Of a DNA stretch of 64,000 nucleotides, positions 34,356 through 53,104 are shown piece by piece (within the stretch, counting starts at the first letter, position 1; each line of letters starts with the position of its first letter). Under the pieces are notes generated by a model. That model did not search any database and was not told the origin of the DNA. It saw nothing but the letters and a program-made list of their open reading frames with translations. A program made the translations under genes and the position numbers. Location of the stretch: assembly GCA_034520665.1 (NCBI GenBank), contig JAXHNJ010000002.1:416660-480659 (forward strand), read 5' to 3'. The stretch is from Patescibacteria group bacterium. Its GTDB lineage: Bacteria > Patescibacteriota > Patescibacteriia > JAXHNJ01.

Positions 34356-35405
34356 TTACTTAAGCTCCCAGTTGGGATCAGCTTTGATTTTTTCTATTTT
34401 GGTAAAGTTTTTTTTCTGAGCCTGAAACCAACCAGCCAGGGCGATCATAGCCGCGTTATCAGTACAAAATTTTAAAGGAGGTATATAGAGCTTAATATTT
34501 TTAGTTCTCTTTTTAAACTGTTTAGCCAAGGTTTGATTAGCGGCCACTCCCCCGCTTACCATAATCGTGTTTACTTTATATTCTTTAGCCGCCTTTAAGG
34601 TTTTTCCGATTAGAACATCAAAACAGGCTTTTTGAAATGAAGCAGCTAAGTCTTTTTTAAATTTTAAATTAATGTTTTTTTGGTCTTTGACCAAATATAA
34701 AACAGCTGTTTTCAAACCCGAGAAACTAAAATCATAGTTTTTTTTATCCATCATTGGGCGGGGTAAATTATATTTATCAGAATTCCCCTCTTTGGCCATT
34801 TTTTCAATAATCGGACCGCCCGGATAACCTAAGCCCAATAATTTAGCCACTTTATCAAAAGCCTCGCCAGCCGCGTCATCCAGAGTCTGGCCGATTTTTT
34901 TGTAATGATATTCATTTTTCATCAGAATAATTTCAGTATGGCCGCCGGAAATAATTAAACAAATAGCCGGGAATTTAATTTTAGGGAGTTTGAAATTTAA
35001 AACGTGTGATTTGTGATTTGCGATTTGCGAATGGCGATCTGAAGGCAGCCAGTTGGCGTAAAGGTGCCCCGCCATATGATTAACAGCCACTAAAGGCTTA
35101 TTAAGAGCAAAGGCTAGTGTTTTAGCCGTTTCTACGCCAATGATTAAGGAGGTTACAAGACCAGGCCCGGCTGTGACGGCCAGTATATCTATTTTCTTTA
35201 AATCTTTAACGGCTTCTTTAATAACGGGAATTATTTTAGTGGTATGCTCTCTGGCCGCCACTTCCGGGACTATACCGCCGGTTTTAGCGTGAAGATCAAT
35301 TTGTGAAGCCACTATGTTTGAGTGTAATTTAAAATTATTGCCTTTGGCTTCTAATAAAGCGGCCGCGGTTTCATCACATGATGTTTCTATGGCTAAAATT
35401 TTCAT
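34356..35405 (-). CDS. tsaD: tRNA N6-adenosine threonylcarbamoyltransferase TsaD (Kae1/YgjD).
   Basis: MKILAIETSCDETAAALL, HMAGHL and GGVAANQ motifs. Confidence 0.9.
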   Translation of the reverse strand: MKILAIETSCDETAAALLEAKGNNFKLHSNIVASQIDLHAKTGGIVPEVAAREHTTKIIPVIKEAVKDLKKIDILAVTAGPGLVTSLIIGVETAKTLAFALNKPLVAVNHMAGHLYANWLPSDRHSQIANHKSHVLNFKLPKIKFPAICLIISGGHTEIILMKNEYHYKKIGQTLDDAAGEAFDKVAKLLGLGYPGGPIIEKMAKEGNSDKYNLPRPMMDKKNYDFSFSGLKTAVLYLVKDQKNINLKFKKDLAASFQKACFDVLIGKTLKAAKEYKVNTIMVSGGVAANQTLAKQFKKRTKNIKLYIPPLKFCTDNAAMIALAGWFQAQKKNFTKIEKIKADPNWELK

Positions 35406-35495: not shown

Positions 35496-35524
35496 TCTTG
35501 ACATTATTTAAATATTTAGCTATT
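35496..35524 (+). promoter_or_regulatory. Sigma70-like promoter driving the tRNA-Glu array.
   Basis: TTGACA-17 nt-TATTAT (cttgacattatttaaatatttagctattat). Confidence 0.5.
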
Positions 35525-35562
35525 ATGCTATTACTTTTTGGAAAATTTAAAAAATAAATTAT

Positions 35563-35835
35563 AAAGAGGTTAAATGATCAAGGCGTGAGTCGTCTAGTTT
35601 GGTCTAGCTTTCCGGCGGTCATCCCTACGGGAGATGTCCCGAAGGAACAAAGATCACCCGTAGGGTGAGACACCAGCCTGAATTAAATTTCAATACCTCT
35701 TTGATAAAAAGGTTAAATGATTATGGCCCTGTCGTCTAGTTTGGTCTAGCCTCCCTTCGGGAGATCACCCGTCGGGTGAGACACCAGCCTGAATTAAATT
35801 TCAATACCTCTTTGATAAAAAGGTTAAATGATTAT
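35563..35835 (+). repeat. Two tandem partial copies of the tRNA-Glu leader plus 5' portion (pseudo-tRNA 5' fragments with structured inserts).
   Basis: Copy A (35582-35677) and copy B (35725-35789) each start with the tRNA acceptor 5' strand plus D-arm (GGCCCTGTCGTCTAGTTTGGTCTAG; in A it is diverged to GGCGTGAGTCG...). Both then carry a GC-rich hairpin insert, then GACACCAGCC, then the shared 46-nt tail tgaattaaatttcaatacctctttgataaaaaggttaaatgattat. Confidence 0.7.
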
Positions 35836-35910
35836 GGCCCTGTCGTCTAGTTTGGTCTAGGACACCAGGTTTTCATCCTGGCAACAGGGGTTCAAATCCC
35901 CTCGGGGTCA
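35836..35910 (+). tRNA. tRNA-Glu (anticodon UUC).
   Basis: Acceptor GGCCCUG/CGGGGUC with two G-U pairs. Anticodon stem CCAGG/CCTGG with loop TTTTCAT (UUC). T-arm AGGGG-TTCAAAT-CCCCT. Strongly resembles E. coli tRNA-Glu (TCGTCTAG...GGACACC...AACAGGGGTTCGAATCCCCT). No CCA is encoded. Confidence 0.85.
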
Positions 35911-35996
35911 TTTAACCTTTTTTGATATTAAAGGTTAATATATGGAAAAAGCGGGATTTCCTTTGATAAGTAACCCCGCTTTAAATCCCCTCTTGG

Positions 35997-36575
35997 CTAG
36001 AACCTGATAAGTTCATTGCTTATCACTCCTTCTGATTTAAGATCCGTTAACTTATTGCTTGTTCTTCTGAGTTTTATTTTTTTCCAGCGGCGAAATTTTT
36101 TGATTAACCACGGGCCCAGAAAAAGAGTCAAAGTGTAACCTTTAAGAAACTTCTTATTTTTCTTTTTCCAGCGGATGATAATTTTAGCCAAGTTACGACT
36201 GGAAAAAACAGTTAAGATATAGATCAGGTTTTCCCAAGCCTTGAAAGGAATTTTATACCTTCCCTGACTAACATAACTGGTTAGCATTAAGATGAGCATA
36301 AAAATTATCCAAACAAGAACAAAGAGATGACCTTTTTTGCGTTTTATAATTTTGCCCTTTAATCGGCCAAAGAGATTCTTAATCCAGTAAAAGAGTAAGA
36401 GCAGGCCGAATATAAGAGCCCGACTTATAAAACGCTGACCATTTATCTCAACCTTAAAAAACTGAGTAAGAACAAGAGCGAACTGGAAGAAAAACCAAGC
36501 CGCACAAACCAGATAAAGAATATCAAGTTCTCTCTTGGCTTTCTTTTTGTCGGGTGAAGCTCGTGAACGTTTCAT
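35997..36575 (-). CDS. Hypothetical membrane protein (3-4 TM) with basic termini.
   Basis: Hydrophobic helices with K/R-rich N- and C-termini. A terminator hairpin (AAAGCGGGG...CCCCGCTTT plus T-run on the minus strand) lies at about 35950-35990. Confidence 0.4.
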   Translation of the reverse strand: MKRSRASPDKKKAKRELDILYLVCAAWFFFQFALVLTQFFKVEINGQRFISRALIFGLLLLFYWIKNLFGRLKGKIIKRKKGHLFVLVWIIFMLILMLTSYVSQGRYKIPFKAWENLIYILTVFSSRNLAKIIIRWKKKNKKFLKGYTLTLFLGPWLIKKFRRWKKIKLRRTSNKLTDLKSEGVISNELIRF

Positions 36576-43882: not shown

Positions 43883-46800
43883 TTAACTGCAATCACACCA
43901 TTTTCTAGCATTTTGGAACATCTGGAGCCAGGGAGATGCCTTAAGTTTATATCTCCAGTCTTTGGGCATCCAGGGCCATTGCCACTTAAGAAAAACGCGT
44001 TCTGGATGCGGCATCATGGCCAGGTGCCGACCGTCTGGTGAACAGAGAGCCGTGATTCCCTTGGGAGAGCCATTAGGATTTAAGGGATAACTTTCTGTCG
44101 CTCTTCCTGTTTCATCGGTATATACTAATGGTGTCAAGTTTTGGAAAACTATATCTTTTAGGATTTCTGAATCAGGACAATGAAGTTGTCCCTCACCATG
44201 AGCGACCCAAATTCCTAAAACAGAATTAGCCATGTCGCCCAACATAATGGAAGGACTTGGCATAATTTTAGTAGTTACCCAACGGGATTCAAAGAGCCCC
44301 GAAGTGTTTTGGATGAAACGAGGTTGTTTATCTTCATCAATGCCTTTCCAAGGTACCCAACCAAGTAGAGCCATCAACTGACAGCCATTACAGACACCAA
44401 GCGAGAAAGTGTCTTCACGCCGGTAAAAACGTTCAAACATTTTTCGCAGTTTGGGATTGAAAAGGATGATTCCGGCCCAACCCTTTGCGCTATCCAGTAC
44501 GTCAGCGTAGGAGAAGCCACCGACAAATACTATGCCACGACATGAATCAAGATCATATTCACCGTTCAGGAGATCAGTCATGGTCACATCAACCGGAGTG
44601 AATCCAGCTGCGAAAAATGCTGAAATCATTTCTCGATCACCATTACTACCTTCTTCGCGGATGATAGCCACTTTGGGCTTGCTAGTTCGGTTCAGAACCT
44701 CCGGAGGAGTTGCTTGCGGATTAAAGGATAGCGAGTAAACTGGACTAATACGCGTTCGGTGCCTTTTAGCCTGTTGCCAGGCCAGATCGGGATCAATTTG
44801 GTGGAGCTCTAGCTGATCACTAGTAGATTCCCACCATTCAAGCAGTTTGCTCGTTGATTCACCAAAGACTAACTCTTCTTGGTGATAAATGAAAACCATA
44901 TGTTCCTGGCAGGAATTTCCCAAAGTTAGACACGGTGAAACACCATACTCTTTAAGAATACTGGCAACTTCAAATTCGTTTTTAGGCAGAACCTCAAGTA
45001 CTAGACCCAGTTCTTCCGAGAACAGGTATTCAAGGGTAGTGACGTTGTCAGGCACCTTCACTTTTATCCCACAGTTGCCGGACATGGACATCTCCACCAG
45101 TGTGGTAATAAGCCCGCCATCACTGATGTCGTGGCCAGCCAAGACGAGATCGTGGTCGATCATTGCCTGAATAGCTAAAAAGACATTTTTCAGAAGTTCG
45201 GGATTATCGACATCCGGAGATTCGTTACCAATCTGCTTGTTGATCTGAGCTAGAGCCGAGCCACCCAGACGGTGCTTACCCGGCGCCATAGGAATATAAA
45301 GCAGAGAGCTATTCCCTGGTTGTTTGATATCCGGAGTTAAGATTTGAGTGATGTCAGGCATAGTAGCGTAGGCCGAAATAACCAACTGCCCTGGTGCTTT
45401 GACAGTTTCGTCGCCTACCTTAGCAGCCATGGACAAACTATCCTTACCGCCATCCACGGCGATACCTAATGCAATCATCAGATCTCGCATAGCTAGGGCA
45501 GCATCATGCAGTTTAGCCCCTTCACCGGGAAGCTTGGCCGCCCACATCCAGTTAGCTGAACACTTGATGTGTTTCAAGTCACTGATGCGAGCGAAGACCA
45601 TATTGGTCAAGGCTTCAGCTACGGCCATCCTAGCGCCAGCAGATGAATTGACTAACATCTTGATCGGTTGTTCACCGATAGATATGGCACTGCCTGTCAG
45701 TCCGAAATGACTCTGAGCCACTGCGGATACATCAGATACTGGTAGTTGCAGCGGACCACAGCATTGTTGTCTGGCGATTAAACCAGTGACACTTCGGTCT
45801 ACCTTTCGAACTAGATAACCTTTAGAGCATACTGATGGTAACCGGAAGACTTGACGTAAAGCCTCTTTAACGCTTATGTCAGGTAAATCTAGCGGAGCCA
45901 GTTCTTCTGGCACCTCATCAATCTTAAAACTCTTCTGCGGCATATCACAGAGAATCTTACCGAGATCAAGGTCTACAGGATAGGAGTCGTCCTGGTTATC
46001 ATAAACTACGATACGACCATTACCAGTGATATTTCCCAACACCTCACAGTTGATCTTTTCGCGTCTGCAGATGGCCTTAAATTTTTCTAATTGATTTGGA
46101 TAAATCAGGAAAGCGTCGCGCTCCTGGTATTCAGCGCCCCAAATCTCGAGAACAGACATAGTGGCATCTCCAACTTGGATTTGCCGTATGTCTATTCTAC
46201 CGCCAGCCGGTTCCACTAATTCCGTCAGAACATTACACGGTCCGCCAGCTCCTTGGTCATGGATGCTCAAAATAGGATTATTACTCCCCATCTCAATACA
46301 GGCACGAATGACACGATTAACTTTCTGTTCCATTTCAGCGTCTCCGCGTTGAACAGCATTGAAGTCCAGCTCAGCCGTGTTAGCCCCTTGAATCATACTG
46401 GAGGCAGAACCACCTCCCATACCAATGCGATAGGCAGGACCTCCAACCTGGATAATTACCATGCCGGGTTCAGGAGTTTTCTTTTTGGTGTGTTGATTAT
46501 CAATCTGACCGACACCACCAGTGAACATGATCGGCTTAATCCATTCGCGTCGCTCACCATTGGGAAGCCTCAGACCGAATGTTCGAACAAAACCCTGTAT
46601 AATAGGTTCGCCGAACTTGTTGCCGTAGTCGGAAGCACCATTGCTTTCCTCAATCATGATTTTGAGGGGAGTAGCCAGGTTGCCCGGATAAGCAAAATCT
46701 GGGTTTTCACCTTTAATGTGCAGAGCACTAGGCATACCGTTGTCAGCAATCAGGAGATTACCAGTGCAATAACCAGCTGTACCAGCAACCACCAGTCCGC

Positions 46801-47737
46801 CTTGGCCCACTCCTTGTCCGTCACGGATACGCCCACCAGTTCCGGTTTCAGCACCAGGAAAAGGAGCTACTCCGCTGGGGAAGTTGTGTGTTTCGGCATT
46901 GAAGGTGATATGATACTCACGTTGCTGGAGAGCAAAAGGTGAACAGATACCAGAATTTTTTGGGATCAAGGTTTGGATCTTGTATCCTGTGATAGCACTG
47001 GCATTATCACTGAAAGCAATCAGGCTGTTGGCCGAGTTGATCTGAAGCGGAGTCTGCACGATCTGGAGTAGCGTCTCGGGAAGTACCTGTCCGTTCCGGA
47101 CAAGTTTTCCCTTGAAGAACCAGTGACGGGAATGCTCACTGTTAGCTTGACCAAGCTGGAAACATTCCACATCTGTGGGATCGCGACCGATCTCGCTGAC
47201 GAAGAGGTTGTGATAGAAGTTGAGGTCCCAGTCGTCCATTCCTAAGCCCATTTTCTGGTTGATACGCCGAAGCGCTTTTACCCCCTCGTTCATTAGAGGA
47301 ATAATACGTACGGCTTTCGGTTGGATGCCGGTAGCGAAAGTTTTCAGGGGGCGAGGATAGTGACATTCAGTCATGCGATCATGATGATTAGCTAAAAAAG
47401 TATCTATATTATCTTCCTGTGGTAAGACATGTCGTCTGGAAATTTCCAAGCGAGTTATTTTATTTAGTCCACAAGCATGACAAATTGCTACGGCATTAGT
47501 TGAAAATGCAGTGGCGAAATTCATGCGTGGTCCAACTTCAATAACAGATTTTTTTTTGGACTGAAACAAGGAATCTTTACTAAAACAATTAGGATCAAAA
47601 GTTTCAGCCAGGAGCCAAGTTAATATATTTAACTCCTGAGTAGTTAATGGTTCGGATGTTTCTACATTAAAACAGTATTCAAATGTAGAACTAGCTTCAC
47701 GGTAAAAATGTAAAACTTTATTAGTATTCATCTCCAA
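43883..47737 (-). CDS. purL: Phosphoribosylformylglycinamidine (FGAM) synthase, long single-chain PurL form with fused N-terminal, synthetase and glutaminase domains.
   Basis: 1284 aa with QANSEHSRHWFF, ETHNFPSGVAPFPGAETGTGGRIRD, EWIKPIMFTGGVGQI, glutaminase LGVCNGCQLMALLGW and a C-terminal MMPHPER motif. Markedly GC-richer than its flanks. The track start at 47737 is a TTG; the ATG at 47731, with AAGGAGG 8 nt upstream, is the more likely start. Confidence 0.9.
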   Translation of the reverse strand: MEMNTNKVLHFYREASSTFEYCFNVETSEPLTTQELNILTWLLAETFDPNCFSKDSLFQSKKKSVIEVGPRMNFATAFSTNAVAICHACGLNKITRLEISRRHVLPQEDNIDTFLANHHDRMTECHYPRPLKTFATGIQPKAVRIIPLMNEGVKALRRINQKMGLGMDDWDLNFYHNLFVSEIGRDPTDVECFQLGQANSEHSRHWFFKGKLVRNGQVLPETLLQIVQTPLQINSANSLIAFSDNASAITGYKIQTLIPKNSGICSPFALQQREYHITFNAETHNFPSGVAPFPGAETGTGGRIRDGQGVGQGGLVVAGTAGYCTGNLLIADNGMPSALHIKGENPDFAYPGNLATPLKIMIEESNGASDYGNKFGEPIIQGFVRTFGLRLPNGERREWIKPIMFTGGVGQIDNQHTKKKTPEPGMVIIQVGGPAYRIGMGGGSASSMIQGANTAELDFNAVQRGDAEMEQKVNRVIRACIEMGSNNPILSIHDQGAGGPCNVLTELVEPAGGRIDIRQIQVGDATMSVLEIWGAEYQERDAFLIYPNQLEKFKAICRREKINCEVLGNITGNGRIVVYDNQDDSYPVDLDLGKILCDMPQKSFKIDEVPEELAPLDLPDISVKEALRQVFRLPSVCSKGYLVRKVDRSVTGLIARQQCCGPLQLPVSDVSAVAQSHFGLTGSAISIGEQPIKMLVNSSAGARMAVAEALTNMVFARISDLKHIKCSANWMWAAKLPGEGAKLHDAALAMRDLMIALGIAVDGGKDSLSMAAKVGDETVKAPGQLVISAYATMPDITQILTPDIKQPGNSSLLYIPMAPGKHRLGGSALAQINKQIGNESPDVDNPELLKNVFLAIQAMIDHDLVLAGHDISDGGLITTLVEMSMSGNCGIKVKVPDNVTTLEYLFSEELGLVLEVLPKNEFEVASILKEYGVSPCLTLGNSCQEHMVFIYHQEELVFGESTSKLLEWWESTSDQLELHQIDPDLAWQQAKRHRTRISPVYSLSFNPQATPPEVLNRTSKPKVAIIREEGSNGDREMISAFFAAGFTPVDVTMTDLLNGEYDLDSCRGIVFVGGFSYADVLDSAKGWAGIILFNPKLRKMFERFYRREDTFSLGVCNGCQLMALLGWVPWKGIDEDKQPRFIQNTSGLFESRWVTTKIMPSPSIMLGDMANSVLGIWVAHGEGQLHCPDSEILKDIVFQNLTPLVYTDETGRATESYPLNPNGSPKGITALCSPDGRHLAMMPHPERVFLKWQWPWMPKDWRYKLKASPWLQMFQNARKWCDCS

Positions 47738-47914
47738 AACCTCCTTTTAGCTTCATTACAAGCTATTTTACAATTAAACTAATATTGATTTAGTTAAACA
47801 CTATTGTCAAAGGACACAATTTAATTAATAAAAAATAATCCCTCCTATGGATTAGTTTTTTGTATAGAAAGCTTACTATAATACTATATAATTATCAAGA
47901 AAGTTTGATTTTTA

Positions 47915-47961
47915 AAATACCGCTTTTATTCTTTTGAGGATGGCATGTTGATTGATTAAAT
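47915..47961 (+). repeat. Direct repeat copy 2 (orphan duplicate of the queA 3' terminus).
   Basis: aaataccgcttttattcttttgaggatggcatgttgattgattaaat. 45 of 47 positions are identical to 43780-43826. It encodes ...YRFYSFEDGMLID* with no gene body. Confidence 0.8.
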
Positions 47962-47962
47962 C

Positions 47963-48165
47963 TTGACAAAAATTAATGGATATTATAAGCTGTCTAAGCT
48001 CATTAAAGACAATATTTGATTTCCTTCCCACCCAATCCCTATCTCTTTCTAGAGATGAACCTTTTATCTATTCTAGGAAATCAGTGTCCCTTCGGGGACA
48101 TAAGCCTTTTGGCTTGATGTTGTCTTTGGCCGGGAGAATTTTGAAACCCTCCCGGCTTTTTATTT
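47963..48165 (+). ncRNA. Candidate small RNA: a promoter-like element, about 170 nt of structured sequence and a strong intrinsic terminator.
   Basis: TTGACA (47963-47968) with a 15-nt spacer to TATAAG. Hairpins GTCCC-ttcg-GGGAC and GCCGGGAG-aattttgaaacc-CTCCCGGC, then TTTTTATTT (48129-48165). No plausible CDS; the 63-aa ORF is low-complexity. The neighbouring genes are on the opposite strand. Confidence 0.3.
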
Positions 48166-52965: not shown

Positions 52966-53104
52966 AAAAAGTCAACCCCTCGTCTCCCTAAGGGAGACTT
53001 CGGCTTACCAGCAAGCTGATGTTAAAAAAGCAACTGTTAAATAATTTAAAATATTTTTTGTTACTTTTGAAACAATATAATTACATTGACCAGGGACCTT
53101 TAAA

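Follow-up and report, generated by a model that had tools for sequence, protein, structure and literature searches.

A tandem array of hairpin-interrupted tRNA-Glu fragments in a Patescibacteria genome, and its possible origin in a cassette that invades tRNA genes

The usual view of homing-nuclease genes is that they can enter an essential gene only within an intron or intein, and that they otherwise lie between genes. The phage GIY-YIG nuclease SegB, from the transfer RNA (tRNA) gene cluster of T4/T6, cleaves within tRNA genes, its target there being the T-loop motif RAWTSGAAC, and drives recombination-dependent tandem amplification of the segment that holds the tRNA and segB (PMC13096335); it is statistically associated with tRNA genes of many isotypes (PMC13096335; PMC2330249). 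Group I introns are found at position 35/36 in Patescibacteria tRNAs (PMC13011429). Here we describe an array at the tRNA-Glu gene of a Patescibacteria group bacterium (contig JAXHNJ010000002.1). It lies in a 64-kb stretch of DNA, analysed whole and called the window below, to which coordinates refer unless another contig is named. Two units, A and B, precede the intact gene, and each carries the 5′ part of tRNA-Glu followed by a GC-rich hairpin module, M. On balance we favour the reading that both units are displaced, truncated 5′ copies of tRNA-Glu, left by a cassette that invades tRNA genes and interrupted by M between nucleotides (nt) 23 and 24 (tRNA numbers are the nt positions of the working tRNA-Glu(UUC)). 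More tentatively, M and a gene for a UPF0213-type GIY-YIG protein of about 82 amino acids (aa) could together form an undescribed class of selfish element that invades tRNA genes in Patescibacteria, of which the window array would be a decayed, tandemly amplified member.

The tRNA-Glu array and the same locus in relatives

The closest relative found (L070 in our numbering of contigs; TsaD 81% identical) has the same promoter, leader and trailer, and its tRNA-Glu is identical at every base, but it is without the extra units. The promoter and unit A of the window align with the promoter and tRNA nt 1-23 of L070, and everything from nt 24 through the trailer is identical, so that 253 nt (35608-35860) are extra in the window, exactly between tRNA nt 23 and 24. 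The array is therefore not a plain local duplication, since L070 has promoter, leader, tRNA and trailer but no units. An earlier reading made from the letters of the window alone (the sequence-only reading) had seen three units of leader and tRNA-Glu 5′ part behind a promoter, only the last of them completing a tRNA-Glu(UUC), and all of this is in the sequence; the starts of units B and C are to be corrected to 35706 and 35817 (from 35701 and 35821), and the inserts measure 61 and 30 nt, not about 60 and 31. Its suggestion of a remnant of serial recombination at the 5′ half of the tRNA holds in part, in the form of the 253-nt insertion at 23/24. It had further supposed that a neutral local duplication would be the simplest explanation if relatives had a single plain tRNA-Glu and the units lacked structure or covariation; L070 does have the single plain gene, but the insert is structured and shows strong covariation.

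The extra sequence divides into two tandem elements, E_A (35608-35749, 142 nt) and E_B (35750-35860, 111 nt), in each of which the order is hairpin insert, nt 24-31, nt 40-43, AT-rich tail, leader and nt 1-23. All features of the array lie on the plus strand. The sigma-70-type promoter, TTGACA-17-TATTAT (35498-35526), matches the consensus at 11/12 positions and is base for base the same in L070; such a match is weak by itself (6 found against 3.6 expected), and its conservation in L070 adds weight. Judged by this comparison it is the ancestral tRNA-Glu promoter, which would now drive the whole array. The ancestral leader, with AAAGAGGTTAAATGATCAA as its 3′ end (35527-35581), is alignable with that of L070 and runs into unit A, the orphaned resident 5′ part of tRNA-Glu and the equivalent of nt 1-23 (35582-35607), in which the acceptor strand is heavily changed (GGCGTGA against GGCCCTG) and the D arm untouched. 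There follow M_A (35608-35668), an expanded hairpin module of 61 nt made of 12 nt, CATCCCTACGGGAGA, TGTCCCGAAGGAACA, AAGA and TCACCCGTAGGGTGA, and the continuation of pseudo-tRNA A (35669-35724), which consists of nt 24-31 (GACACCAG), nt 40-43 (CCTG), an AT-rich tail and a second leader (AAAAAGGTTAAATGATTAT), and lacks anticodon loop and T arm. Unit B (35725-35749) is tRNA-Glu nt 1-23 as in the working gene (26/26 identity); M_B (35750-35779) sits exactly between its nt 23 and the nt 24 that opens the continuation of pseudo-tRNA B (35780-35835: nt 24-31, nt 40-43, tail and third leader). This continuation has one mismatch to the copy after unit A over a repeat of 99 nt (35651-35749 against 35762-35860). 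As the sequence-only reading had it, the substitutions between A and B both fall in hairpin loops (TAC against TTC, GTA against GTC), but there are also two indels.

The intact tRNA-Glu(UUC) (35836-35910), found by ARAGORN and Rfam, has a sequence identical to the tRNA of L070. It is the single tRNA in the region by both methods (35835/6-35910/1); unit C reaches 59.2 bits with the Rfam tRNA model (RF00005; gathering threshold 29), and units A and B gave no tRNA match in the Rfam search even at an expectation value (E) <= 10. A perfect 15-bp pairing of leader and trailer (35817-31 with 35908-22) brackets this tRNA, and among the TsaD/tRNA-Glu relatives compared such a long stem is common to the window and L070 only. 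Downstream, the trailer TCATTTAACCTTTTT and a fourth, partial leader copy, AAAGGTTAA (35930-35938), together occupy 35908-35938 and form the 9-bp hairpin that had already been pointed out (35912-20 with 35930-38); the trailer is kept in L070, but its AAAGGTTAA copy is not. A possible further relic spans 35946-35998, where the hairpin AAAGCGGGATT/AACCCCGCTTT holds a third copy of CTTTGATAA in its loop and the next sequence, CTTTAAATCCCCTCTTGGCTA, is similar to tRNA nt 54-76 (16/20). This region is not alignable with L070 and, tentatively, may be a decayed 3′ orphan like those of L190, L092 and L100 described below.

Extra 5′ copies of a tRNA could also be made by repeat-induced misassembly, and the region is repetitive enough to raise the question. 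The 19-nt string GTCGTCTAGTTTGGTCTAG (tRNA-Glu nt 8-23) occurs in exactly three copies (35589, 35731 and 35842; 0 expected), AAAGGTTAA recurs at 35708, 35819 and 35930 with spacings of 111 and 111 nt, and Tandem Repeats Finder reports 35651-35860 with period 111, 1.9 copies and 98% matches. The 111-nt repeat is 99% identical, and short-read Logan contigs break inside it: L001 and L002 (run SRR26473340), which carry TsaD and the 192-aa gene beside the array, end at 35692 and 35864. However, 35692 is the exact point at which the 31-mers of units A and B merge after their loop difference at 35662, and the breaks fall where a real repeat splits the de Bruijn graph of 31-mers. Units A and B each hold junctions and M variants that are unique and not derivable from the other copies, so that an assembler could not have derived unit B from A and C alone; these two observations together argue against an artefact, and the same architecture is present in many independent assemblies. 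We regard the chance of a misassembly as very remote. The break at 35864 lies a few bases to the right of the position predicted from the repeat only, a hint that another strain or a variant of the tRNA co-occurs.

The divergent pairing of TsaD and tRNA-Glu is kept down to about 50% TsaD identity in Patescibacteria (L007 and L010 3823-3897; L070; window), and a plain tRNA-Glu beside TsaD is also seen in the more distant L073, L007 and L010. Within the clade the arrangement is patchy: the gene is plain in L070 and L073, broken at 35/36 in L071, L074 and L195, and broken at 23/24 in the window. Three relatives of the host carry a version with a nuclease gene at tRNA-Glu and a fourth carries an array of M-interrupted 3′ halves; tandem copies number two in the window, two in L071 and three in L074. 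The 262-kb contig of L074 (TsaD 64% identical) opens (1-300) with three tandem 102-nt units, each composed of CGCTTT, M and tRNA-Glu nt 36-76. In the last of them the acceptor 3′ strand differs, there is no intact tRNA-Glu on this contig end, and the assembly probably broke within the array. L195 shares the Hsp20, DUF3006 and VanW neighbours of the window. To judge from these sequences, the invasions of tRNA-Glu within the clade look like recurrent, independent events at one gene.

Integration at tRNA genes is classical, and Patescibacteria tRNAs commonly have group I introns at 35/36 (PMC13011429), so the array might be taken for what remains of a classical element that targets tRNAs, be it an island brought in by an integrase or a group I intron in decay. 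We find this scarcely credible. It is the 5′ part and not the 3′ end that is duplicated, the block is only 253 nt long, and no integrase is found among the neighbours of the array, which are TsaD (minus strand, 34356-35405; the protein is NCBI MDZ7798852.1, encoded on a 698-kb contig of a Patescibacteria metagenome-assembled genome), LeuRS, a 192-aa gene, Hsp20, DUF3006 and VanW. No group I intron family matched at E <= 10 in the region or in M-bearing loci, and removal of the 30-nt M restores a tRNA in only 1/141 cases. An array of clustered regularly interspaced short palindromic repeats (CRISPR) was likewise rejected, the units being tRNA-derived and 143 and 111 nt long with no alternation of repeat and spacer. 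In dismissing a CRISPR array, an integrase att scar and an ordinary pseudogene, the sequence-only reading was right. A reading of unit A as resembling signal recognition particle RNA (GUCCCGAAGGAAC) found no model match.

The hairpin module and its occurrence in truncated tRNA copies

M is 30 nt long and consists of a pair of GC-rich hairpins side by side, each with a 6-bp stem and a 3-nt loop (TNC in the first, GNA in the second). M_B is its canonical form, CCTCCCTTCGGGAGA followed directly by TCACCCGTCGGGTGA (in full CCTCCCTTCGGGAGATCACCCGTCGGGTGA); it matches the module search pattern CCCNNNGGGNNNTCACCCNNNGGGTGA exactly, scores 43.6 bits with our covariance model R1 (E = 2e-12), and is predicted to fold as two hairpins as DNA and as RNA. 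Its second loop, GTC, is a rare variant, present in 2/109 M copies. M_A corresponds to a B-like module with a third hairpin at its centre, and R1 matches it at 35637-35668 (23.9 bits, E = 6e-6), with a half-module match at 35620-35634. Within the window R1 places M only at the tRNA-Glu array; a lone hairpin in a divergent intergenic region (GTCTCCC-TAA-GGGAGAC, 52976-52998) is a half-module match at 12 bits (E = 0.04).

Beyond the window, the inserts have homologues in a widespread family. The pattern CCCNNNGGGNNNTCACCCNNNGGGTGA matched at least 120 metagenome stretches, among which several in GC-rich DNA look like chance, and its one match in 2.9 M viral contigs (IMG/VR), in GC-rich DNA without a tRNA in the vicinity, seems due to chance. 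Over 92 distinct M sequences the two-hairpin fold is 95.7% paired (slid controls about 45%), and the same copies show 81 double-change cells against 26.6 in shuffles, a value reached by 0/500 shuffles. M_B and the insert of L071, TGACCCTGCGGGTCATCACCCGGAGGGTGA, clearly belong to one module, their first stems differing by compensatory changes. A single long hairpin was considered and rejected: although some copies have it as their minimum-free-energy fold, the covariation speaks for two hairpins, the long form being only 79.7% paired and its middle loop letters unpaired in 60/92 copies. M is dyad-symmetric, such that its reverse complement gives the same layout, and it is found in both orientations; in one sub-family the letters at the loop ends change in concert. 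A feature of the DNA, such as a cruciform or a site bound by a dimer, would suit this pattern no less well than an RNA feature. Rfam matched only tRNA in the array region, both at the gathering threshold and at E <= 10, and only tRNA in seven M-bearing loci. What the sequence-only reading called a novel structured RNA module is borne out in part, for the hairpin inserts, as members of a covarying 30-nt family.

The sequence-only reading had also offered co-transcribed tRNA-derived small RNAs. On such a view units A and B would be functional, the tRNA precursor yielding from them stable small RNAs, either tRNA-derived or structured, which could for example act as decoys for tRNA-binding enzymes or regulate tRNA-Glu maturation through leader/trailer pairing. 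The units stand behind a strong promoter and must be co-transcribed, the stems of their hairpins are kept while the differences between A and B fall in the loops, unit B can be modelled as a four-way junction, and the covariation of M would also suit an RNA role, such as a structure in the 5′ untranslated region of the nuclease mRNA. Nevertheless, we hold a functional RNA to be quite improbable. The units are absent from L070, which has an identical tRNA, no Rfam family matches them or the M-bearing loci tested, and their folding is unremarkable against shuffles (z = -2.2 for unit A and -1.3 for unit B). Moreover, M occurs in both orientations with a dyad symmetry that includes the non-pairing loop end letters, which is better understood as a DNA-level feature, and in other genomes it is flanked by plainly decaying tRNA pieces of varying length. 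With unit B folding no better than shuffles and neither unit present in the closest relative, the most likely reading of A and B is that they are by-products of co-transcription and not functional small RNAs.

The association of M with tRNA genes is not confined to Glu. Among the 137 pattern matches listed, 43 lie <= 700 nt from a tRNA and 20 have a GIY-YIG open reading frame (ORF) between M and the tRNA; tRNA-derived flanks are present at 39 of the 141 generic M copies listed. The isotypes with M-marked copies include Glu, Asp, Pro, Ser, Thr, Ile, Arg and Cys. Truncated copies interrupted by M adjoin an intact tRNA of the same isotype, as in the window, where nt 1-23, M and nt 24-31 follow one another twice, and pseudo-copies nearly always carry M. 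The tRNA numbering runs on across M in every readable case, with breaks at 11-12/13, 23/24 (the window and L190), 35/36 (most Glu cases) and 55/56 (T loop). Excision of M in silico restores a detectable tRNA in 1/141 listed copies, and M is thus not an intron of working genes. The flanks favour TT/CAA or its complement (the slash marks the insertion point), with T at -2 in 81% and A at +2 in 76%; the commonest targets are TT/CAA in T loops and in the Glu anticodon loop.

Mirror-image layouts, in which M and a 3′ part lie downstream of the intact tRNA, were found in L190, L092, L100, L085 and L074 (the three tandem 102-nt units). The stranded fragment and the intact tRNA are different alleles in L161, L174, L135 and L071, which implies that the intact gene was imported, at least in part. 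In L135 (2100-2345; also L141) the resident tRNA-Ile(UAU) is split as nt 1-12, M, 13-35 and nt 36-55, M, 56-76, and a different intact tRNA-Ile is nested between the halves without any nuclease ORF; the two orphan halves in L135 have mutually complementary acceptor strands, unlike those of the intact gene.

Some copies depart from the canonical form or setting. In L198 (1075-1145) the hairpins have long AT-rich expanded loops, M copies stand in tandem in L120, L121 and L095, and at a contig end of L108 (5440-5570) M is the centre of a long, perfect palindrome that is probably a fold-back made in assembly. Many of the M copies away from tRNAs (e.g. L078, L081, L102, L128, L144, L168) lie in AT-rich DNA of 7-10-nt tandem repeats. 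Direct repeats of 6-14 nt flank about 10% of non-tRNA copies (12 against 1.2 expected), and could reflect target duplication or a preference for such repeats.

Nuclease-bearing cassettes and a proposed mechanism

In relatives of the host the tRNA-Glu array includes a gene. In L071/L072 (TsaD 73% identical) the promoter is followed by tRNA-Glu nt 1-35, the 30-nt insert given above, nt 36-47, a relic of the 3′ acceptor without T arm, an 82-aa GIY-YIG ORF and nt 1-35 again; the 360-nt unit is present twice and then comes a complete tRNA. The promoter-proximal fragment differs from the later ones in the D loop and at nt 26. L008 runs from tRNA nt 1-12 through a 30-nt insert and a GIY-YIG ORF to an intact tRNA-Glu. 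The same succession of promoter, tRNA fragment, M, ORF of about 82 aa and intact tRNA is shared by L071/L072, L008, L086, L092, L098, L153, L161, L167, L184, L190 and L191. For an independent sample, homologues of the L071 nuclease were picked by protein similarity only and the contigs of four were read. Three of these (L195, L196, L198) have promoter, tRNA-Glu nt 1-35, an M variant, nt 36 onwards, the ORF and an intact tRNA-Glu, with M sequences that lie outside the CCCNNNGGGNNNTCACCCNNNGGGTGA pattern; the fourth (P0128; L199/L200) has an efflux operon as its setting, without a tRNA.

The nuclease ORFs are about 80-87 aa long and comprise the GIY-YIG catalytic domain alone (Pfam PF01541), with invariant Tyr, Gly, Arg, His and Glu positions across 17 sequences. 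The best PDB matches of their profile are the UPF0213 entries 1ZG2 and 1YWL (E = 9e-13 and 4e-8), SLX1 and I-TevI being more distant, and NCBIfam offers no specific family for the cassette nuclease. The ATG follows M by 7-36 nt, which leaves little room for a promoter, so that transcription of the ORF must start at the tRNA promoter and cross the orphan fragment and M. Searches of phages and plasmids by BLAST returned only distant GIY-YIG genes or tRNA-Glu matches.

We hypothesize that the general form of the cassette is M, a few nt of tRNA past the break, a small GIY-YIG nuclease gene, the leader and tRNA nt 1..X. Inserted at X/X+1, such a cassette would strand the resident 5′ part upstream, and its own nt 1..X would join the resident 3′ part to regenerate an intact tRNA downstream, everything being transcribed from the resident tRNA promoter. 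By analogy with phage SegB, the nuclease may cut tRNA genes and drive invasion or amplification via recombinational repair: the tRNA gene would be broken, repair from a cassette-bearing donor would copy the cassette, the tRNA part carried by the cassette would restore a working gene while the stranded resident part remained upstream, and unequal repair would lead to tandem copies. M at the break might make the stranded copy uncuttable or be the cis-acting site of the nuclease, and the tRNA would presumably be freed from the long transcript by normal end-processing. Non-autonomous copies of M outnumber the nuclease gene, much as MITEs (miniature transposable elements with inverted repeats) outnumber their parent elements. 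If these loci do represent a class of selfish element, M would be its very small, dyad-symmetric mobile or protein-binding DNA module, inserted precisely and with no duplication of the target at TT/CAA-like sites, and mobilised or recognised by the nuclease, whose gene would be placed between the host tRNA promoter and the only working tRNA copy. An element of this kind needs no self-splicing intron, since it carries the replacement part (or whole) of the tRNA that it breaks. By its sequence, the window array is the ORF-less version of the cassette, tandemly duplicated, and a relic; the nuclease gene was either lost or never there.

These proposals should be interpreted with some caution, since a number of observations weigh against them. 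No GIY-YIG gene was found in the window by tblastn, and a family profile run against six-frame translations of the window gave no significant relic of a nuclease ORF; the motif AAAAGGTTAAAT of the leader also stands at the 3′ end of the ORF in L071 and L195, a weak DNA similarity that is no more than suggestive (p = 0.0005-0.06). The window is broken at 23/24 and its nearest ORF-bearing relatives at 35/36, the only other 23/24 case, L190, is not close, and the exact window array occurs in one genome only. Arrangements without an ORF are seen in L135, L074 and the tRNA-Pro and tRNA-Thr cases, and most M copies have no nuclease gene nearby (20/137 listed pattern matches have one), so that M may move or arise independently of the nuclease. 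That UPF0213-like proteins of about 80 aa would cut tRNA genes is argued from analogy with SegB and from the preference of M sites for TT/CAA and T loops, binding of M by these proteins is hypothetical, and the cassette model does not account for the precise insertion of M without target duplication.

Much of this would be expected if the array had arisen by local tandem duplication through unequal recombination, followed by independent insertion of an M resembling MITEs or repetitive extragenic palindromic (REP) sequences, the GIY-YIG gene being uninvolved at the locus. M would then prefer TT/CAA-like or tRNA-like DNA and persist only in redundant copies, because insertion into a working gene would be lethal. 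The lack of a nuclease gene or relic in the window, the distance of most M copies from any GIY-YIG gene or tRNA, the target preference of M (-2 T 81%, +2 A 76%), the direct-repeat flanks of some copies (12 against 1.2) and the ORF-less M-bearing pseudo-tRNAs of L135 and L074 all speak for such an origin. We still regard it as unlikely. The units of the window share a permuted order (M, nt X+1 onwards, tail, leader, nt 1..X) with the ORF-bearing cassettes of close relatives; M-bearing partial duplicates occur at the same tRNA in at least four members of one clade (L071, L074, L195 and the window), which is unlikely by chance; M is found nowhere else in the 64 kb, so a high background rate of insertion is not evident in the genome; and the intact tRNA of several loci is an allele of foreign origin. 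We retain the invading cassette as the preferred explanation of units A and B.

Two features near the array or elsewhere in the window deserve mention. The 192-aa ORF beside the array (35997-36575, minus strand) has no Pfam match, and other genes occupy its place in L070 and L195. GC content is 43-47% in 44001-48000, against about 33% elsewhere and in the window as a whole; this region includes a 1284-aa PurL of the large type (FGAR amidotransferase; 43883-47737, minus strand), and the gene may have been horizontally acquired.

Comparison with known systems

The family behind the array seems to be undescribed. The literature on GIY-YIG proteins, Patescibacteria tRNAs and palindromic repeats of the candidate phyla radiation, as far as our incomplete coverage of it extends, gives no account of M or of a UPF0213-type nuclease nested in a tRNA gene. 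SegB shares with the cassettes a GIY-YIG nuclease gene beside tRNA genes. However, the cassette proteins, with about 82 aa, are a near-bare UPF0213-type catalytic domain encoded in bacterial chromosomes, with tRNA-gene cleavage putative and proposed by analogy. The cassette is moreover nested in the tRNA gene and leaves an orphan fragment always marked by the 30-nt double hairpin. A GIY-YIG ORF within the element, as a likeness to SegB would have it, is lacking in the window but present in L071, L195, L196, L198, L008 and others.

Islands and prophages of tyrosine integrases resemble the cassettes in that the element carries part of a tRNA, rebuilds the gene and leaves a partial copy at the other end. 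There, the 3′ part is duplicated and the elements measure kilobases and encode an integrase, whereas here it is usually the 5′ part, in units of 111-360 nt without integrase and with a leftover interrupted by M. Group I introns in Patescibacteria tRNAs occur in the same phylum, share the 35/36 break favoured in most ORF-bearing relatives and may also hold a nuclease gene (PMC13011429), but M has no ribozyme match and is 30 nt long, and the copy that it interrupts is truncated and unspliceable, function being kept by a second, intact copy. The split or permuted tRNAs and non-canonical introns of archaea likewise show breaks at several non-canonical positions with GC-rich helices at the break; their pieces are joined by a splicing endonuclease, whereas those described here are without a partner and have an intact gene alongside.

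As a dispersed repeat, M recalls REP/REPIN-RAYT systems and MITE-like repeats, which are also short, GC-rich and dispersed, with an inverted hairpin pair, compensatory stems and non-autonomous copies that far outnumber the associated enzyme gene. M is dispersed over metagenome contigs but confined to one locus within the window. It differs from REP and REPIN sequences in its 30-nt length without spacer, its TNC and GNA triloops in place of a GTAG head and its precise insertion in tRNA-derived DNA, and the one protein that recurs as its partner is a GIY-YIG nuclease rather than a Y1 transposase of the IS200 type (no search aimed at RAYT or IS200 was made). With its strong covariation and no Rfam match, this compact module would be a ready annotation marker for such events, and units A and B would be annotated as element scars, not as genes. 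The family may also help to explain rearrangements of tRNA loci, orphan tRNA fragments and contig breaks in the very small genomes of Patescibacteria.

The best sequence match of the cassette nuclease, finally, is to UPF0213/YhbQ-type proteins, which likewise consist of the GIY-YIG domain alone and are annotated as hypothetical proteins in the PDB entries; we know of no reported link of this family to tRNA genes or to a hairpin module. If the cassette reading is true, it would give these poorly understood mini-nucleases a concrete biological role. Next to entry inside introns or inteins and residence between genes, it would also add a possible third strategy of invasion, in which a cassette disrupts a tRNA gene present only once and itself supplies the copy from which that gene is restored.

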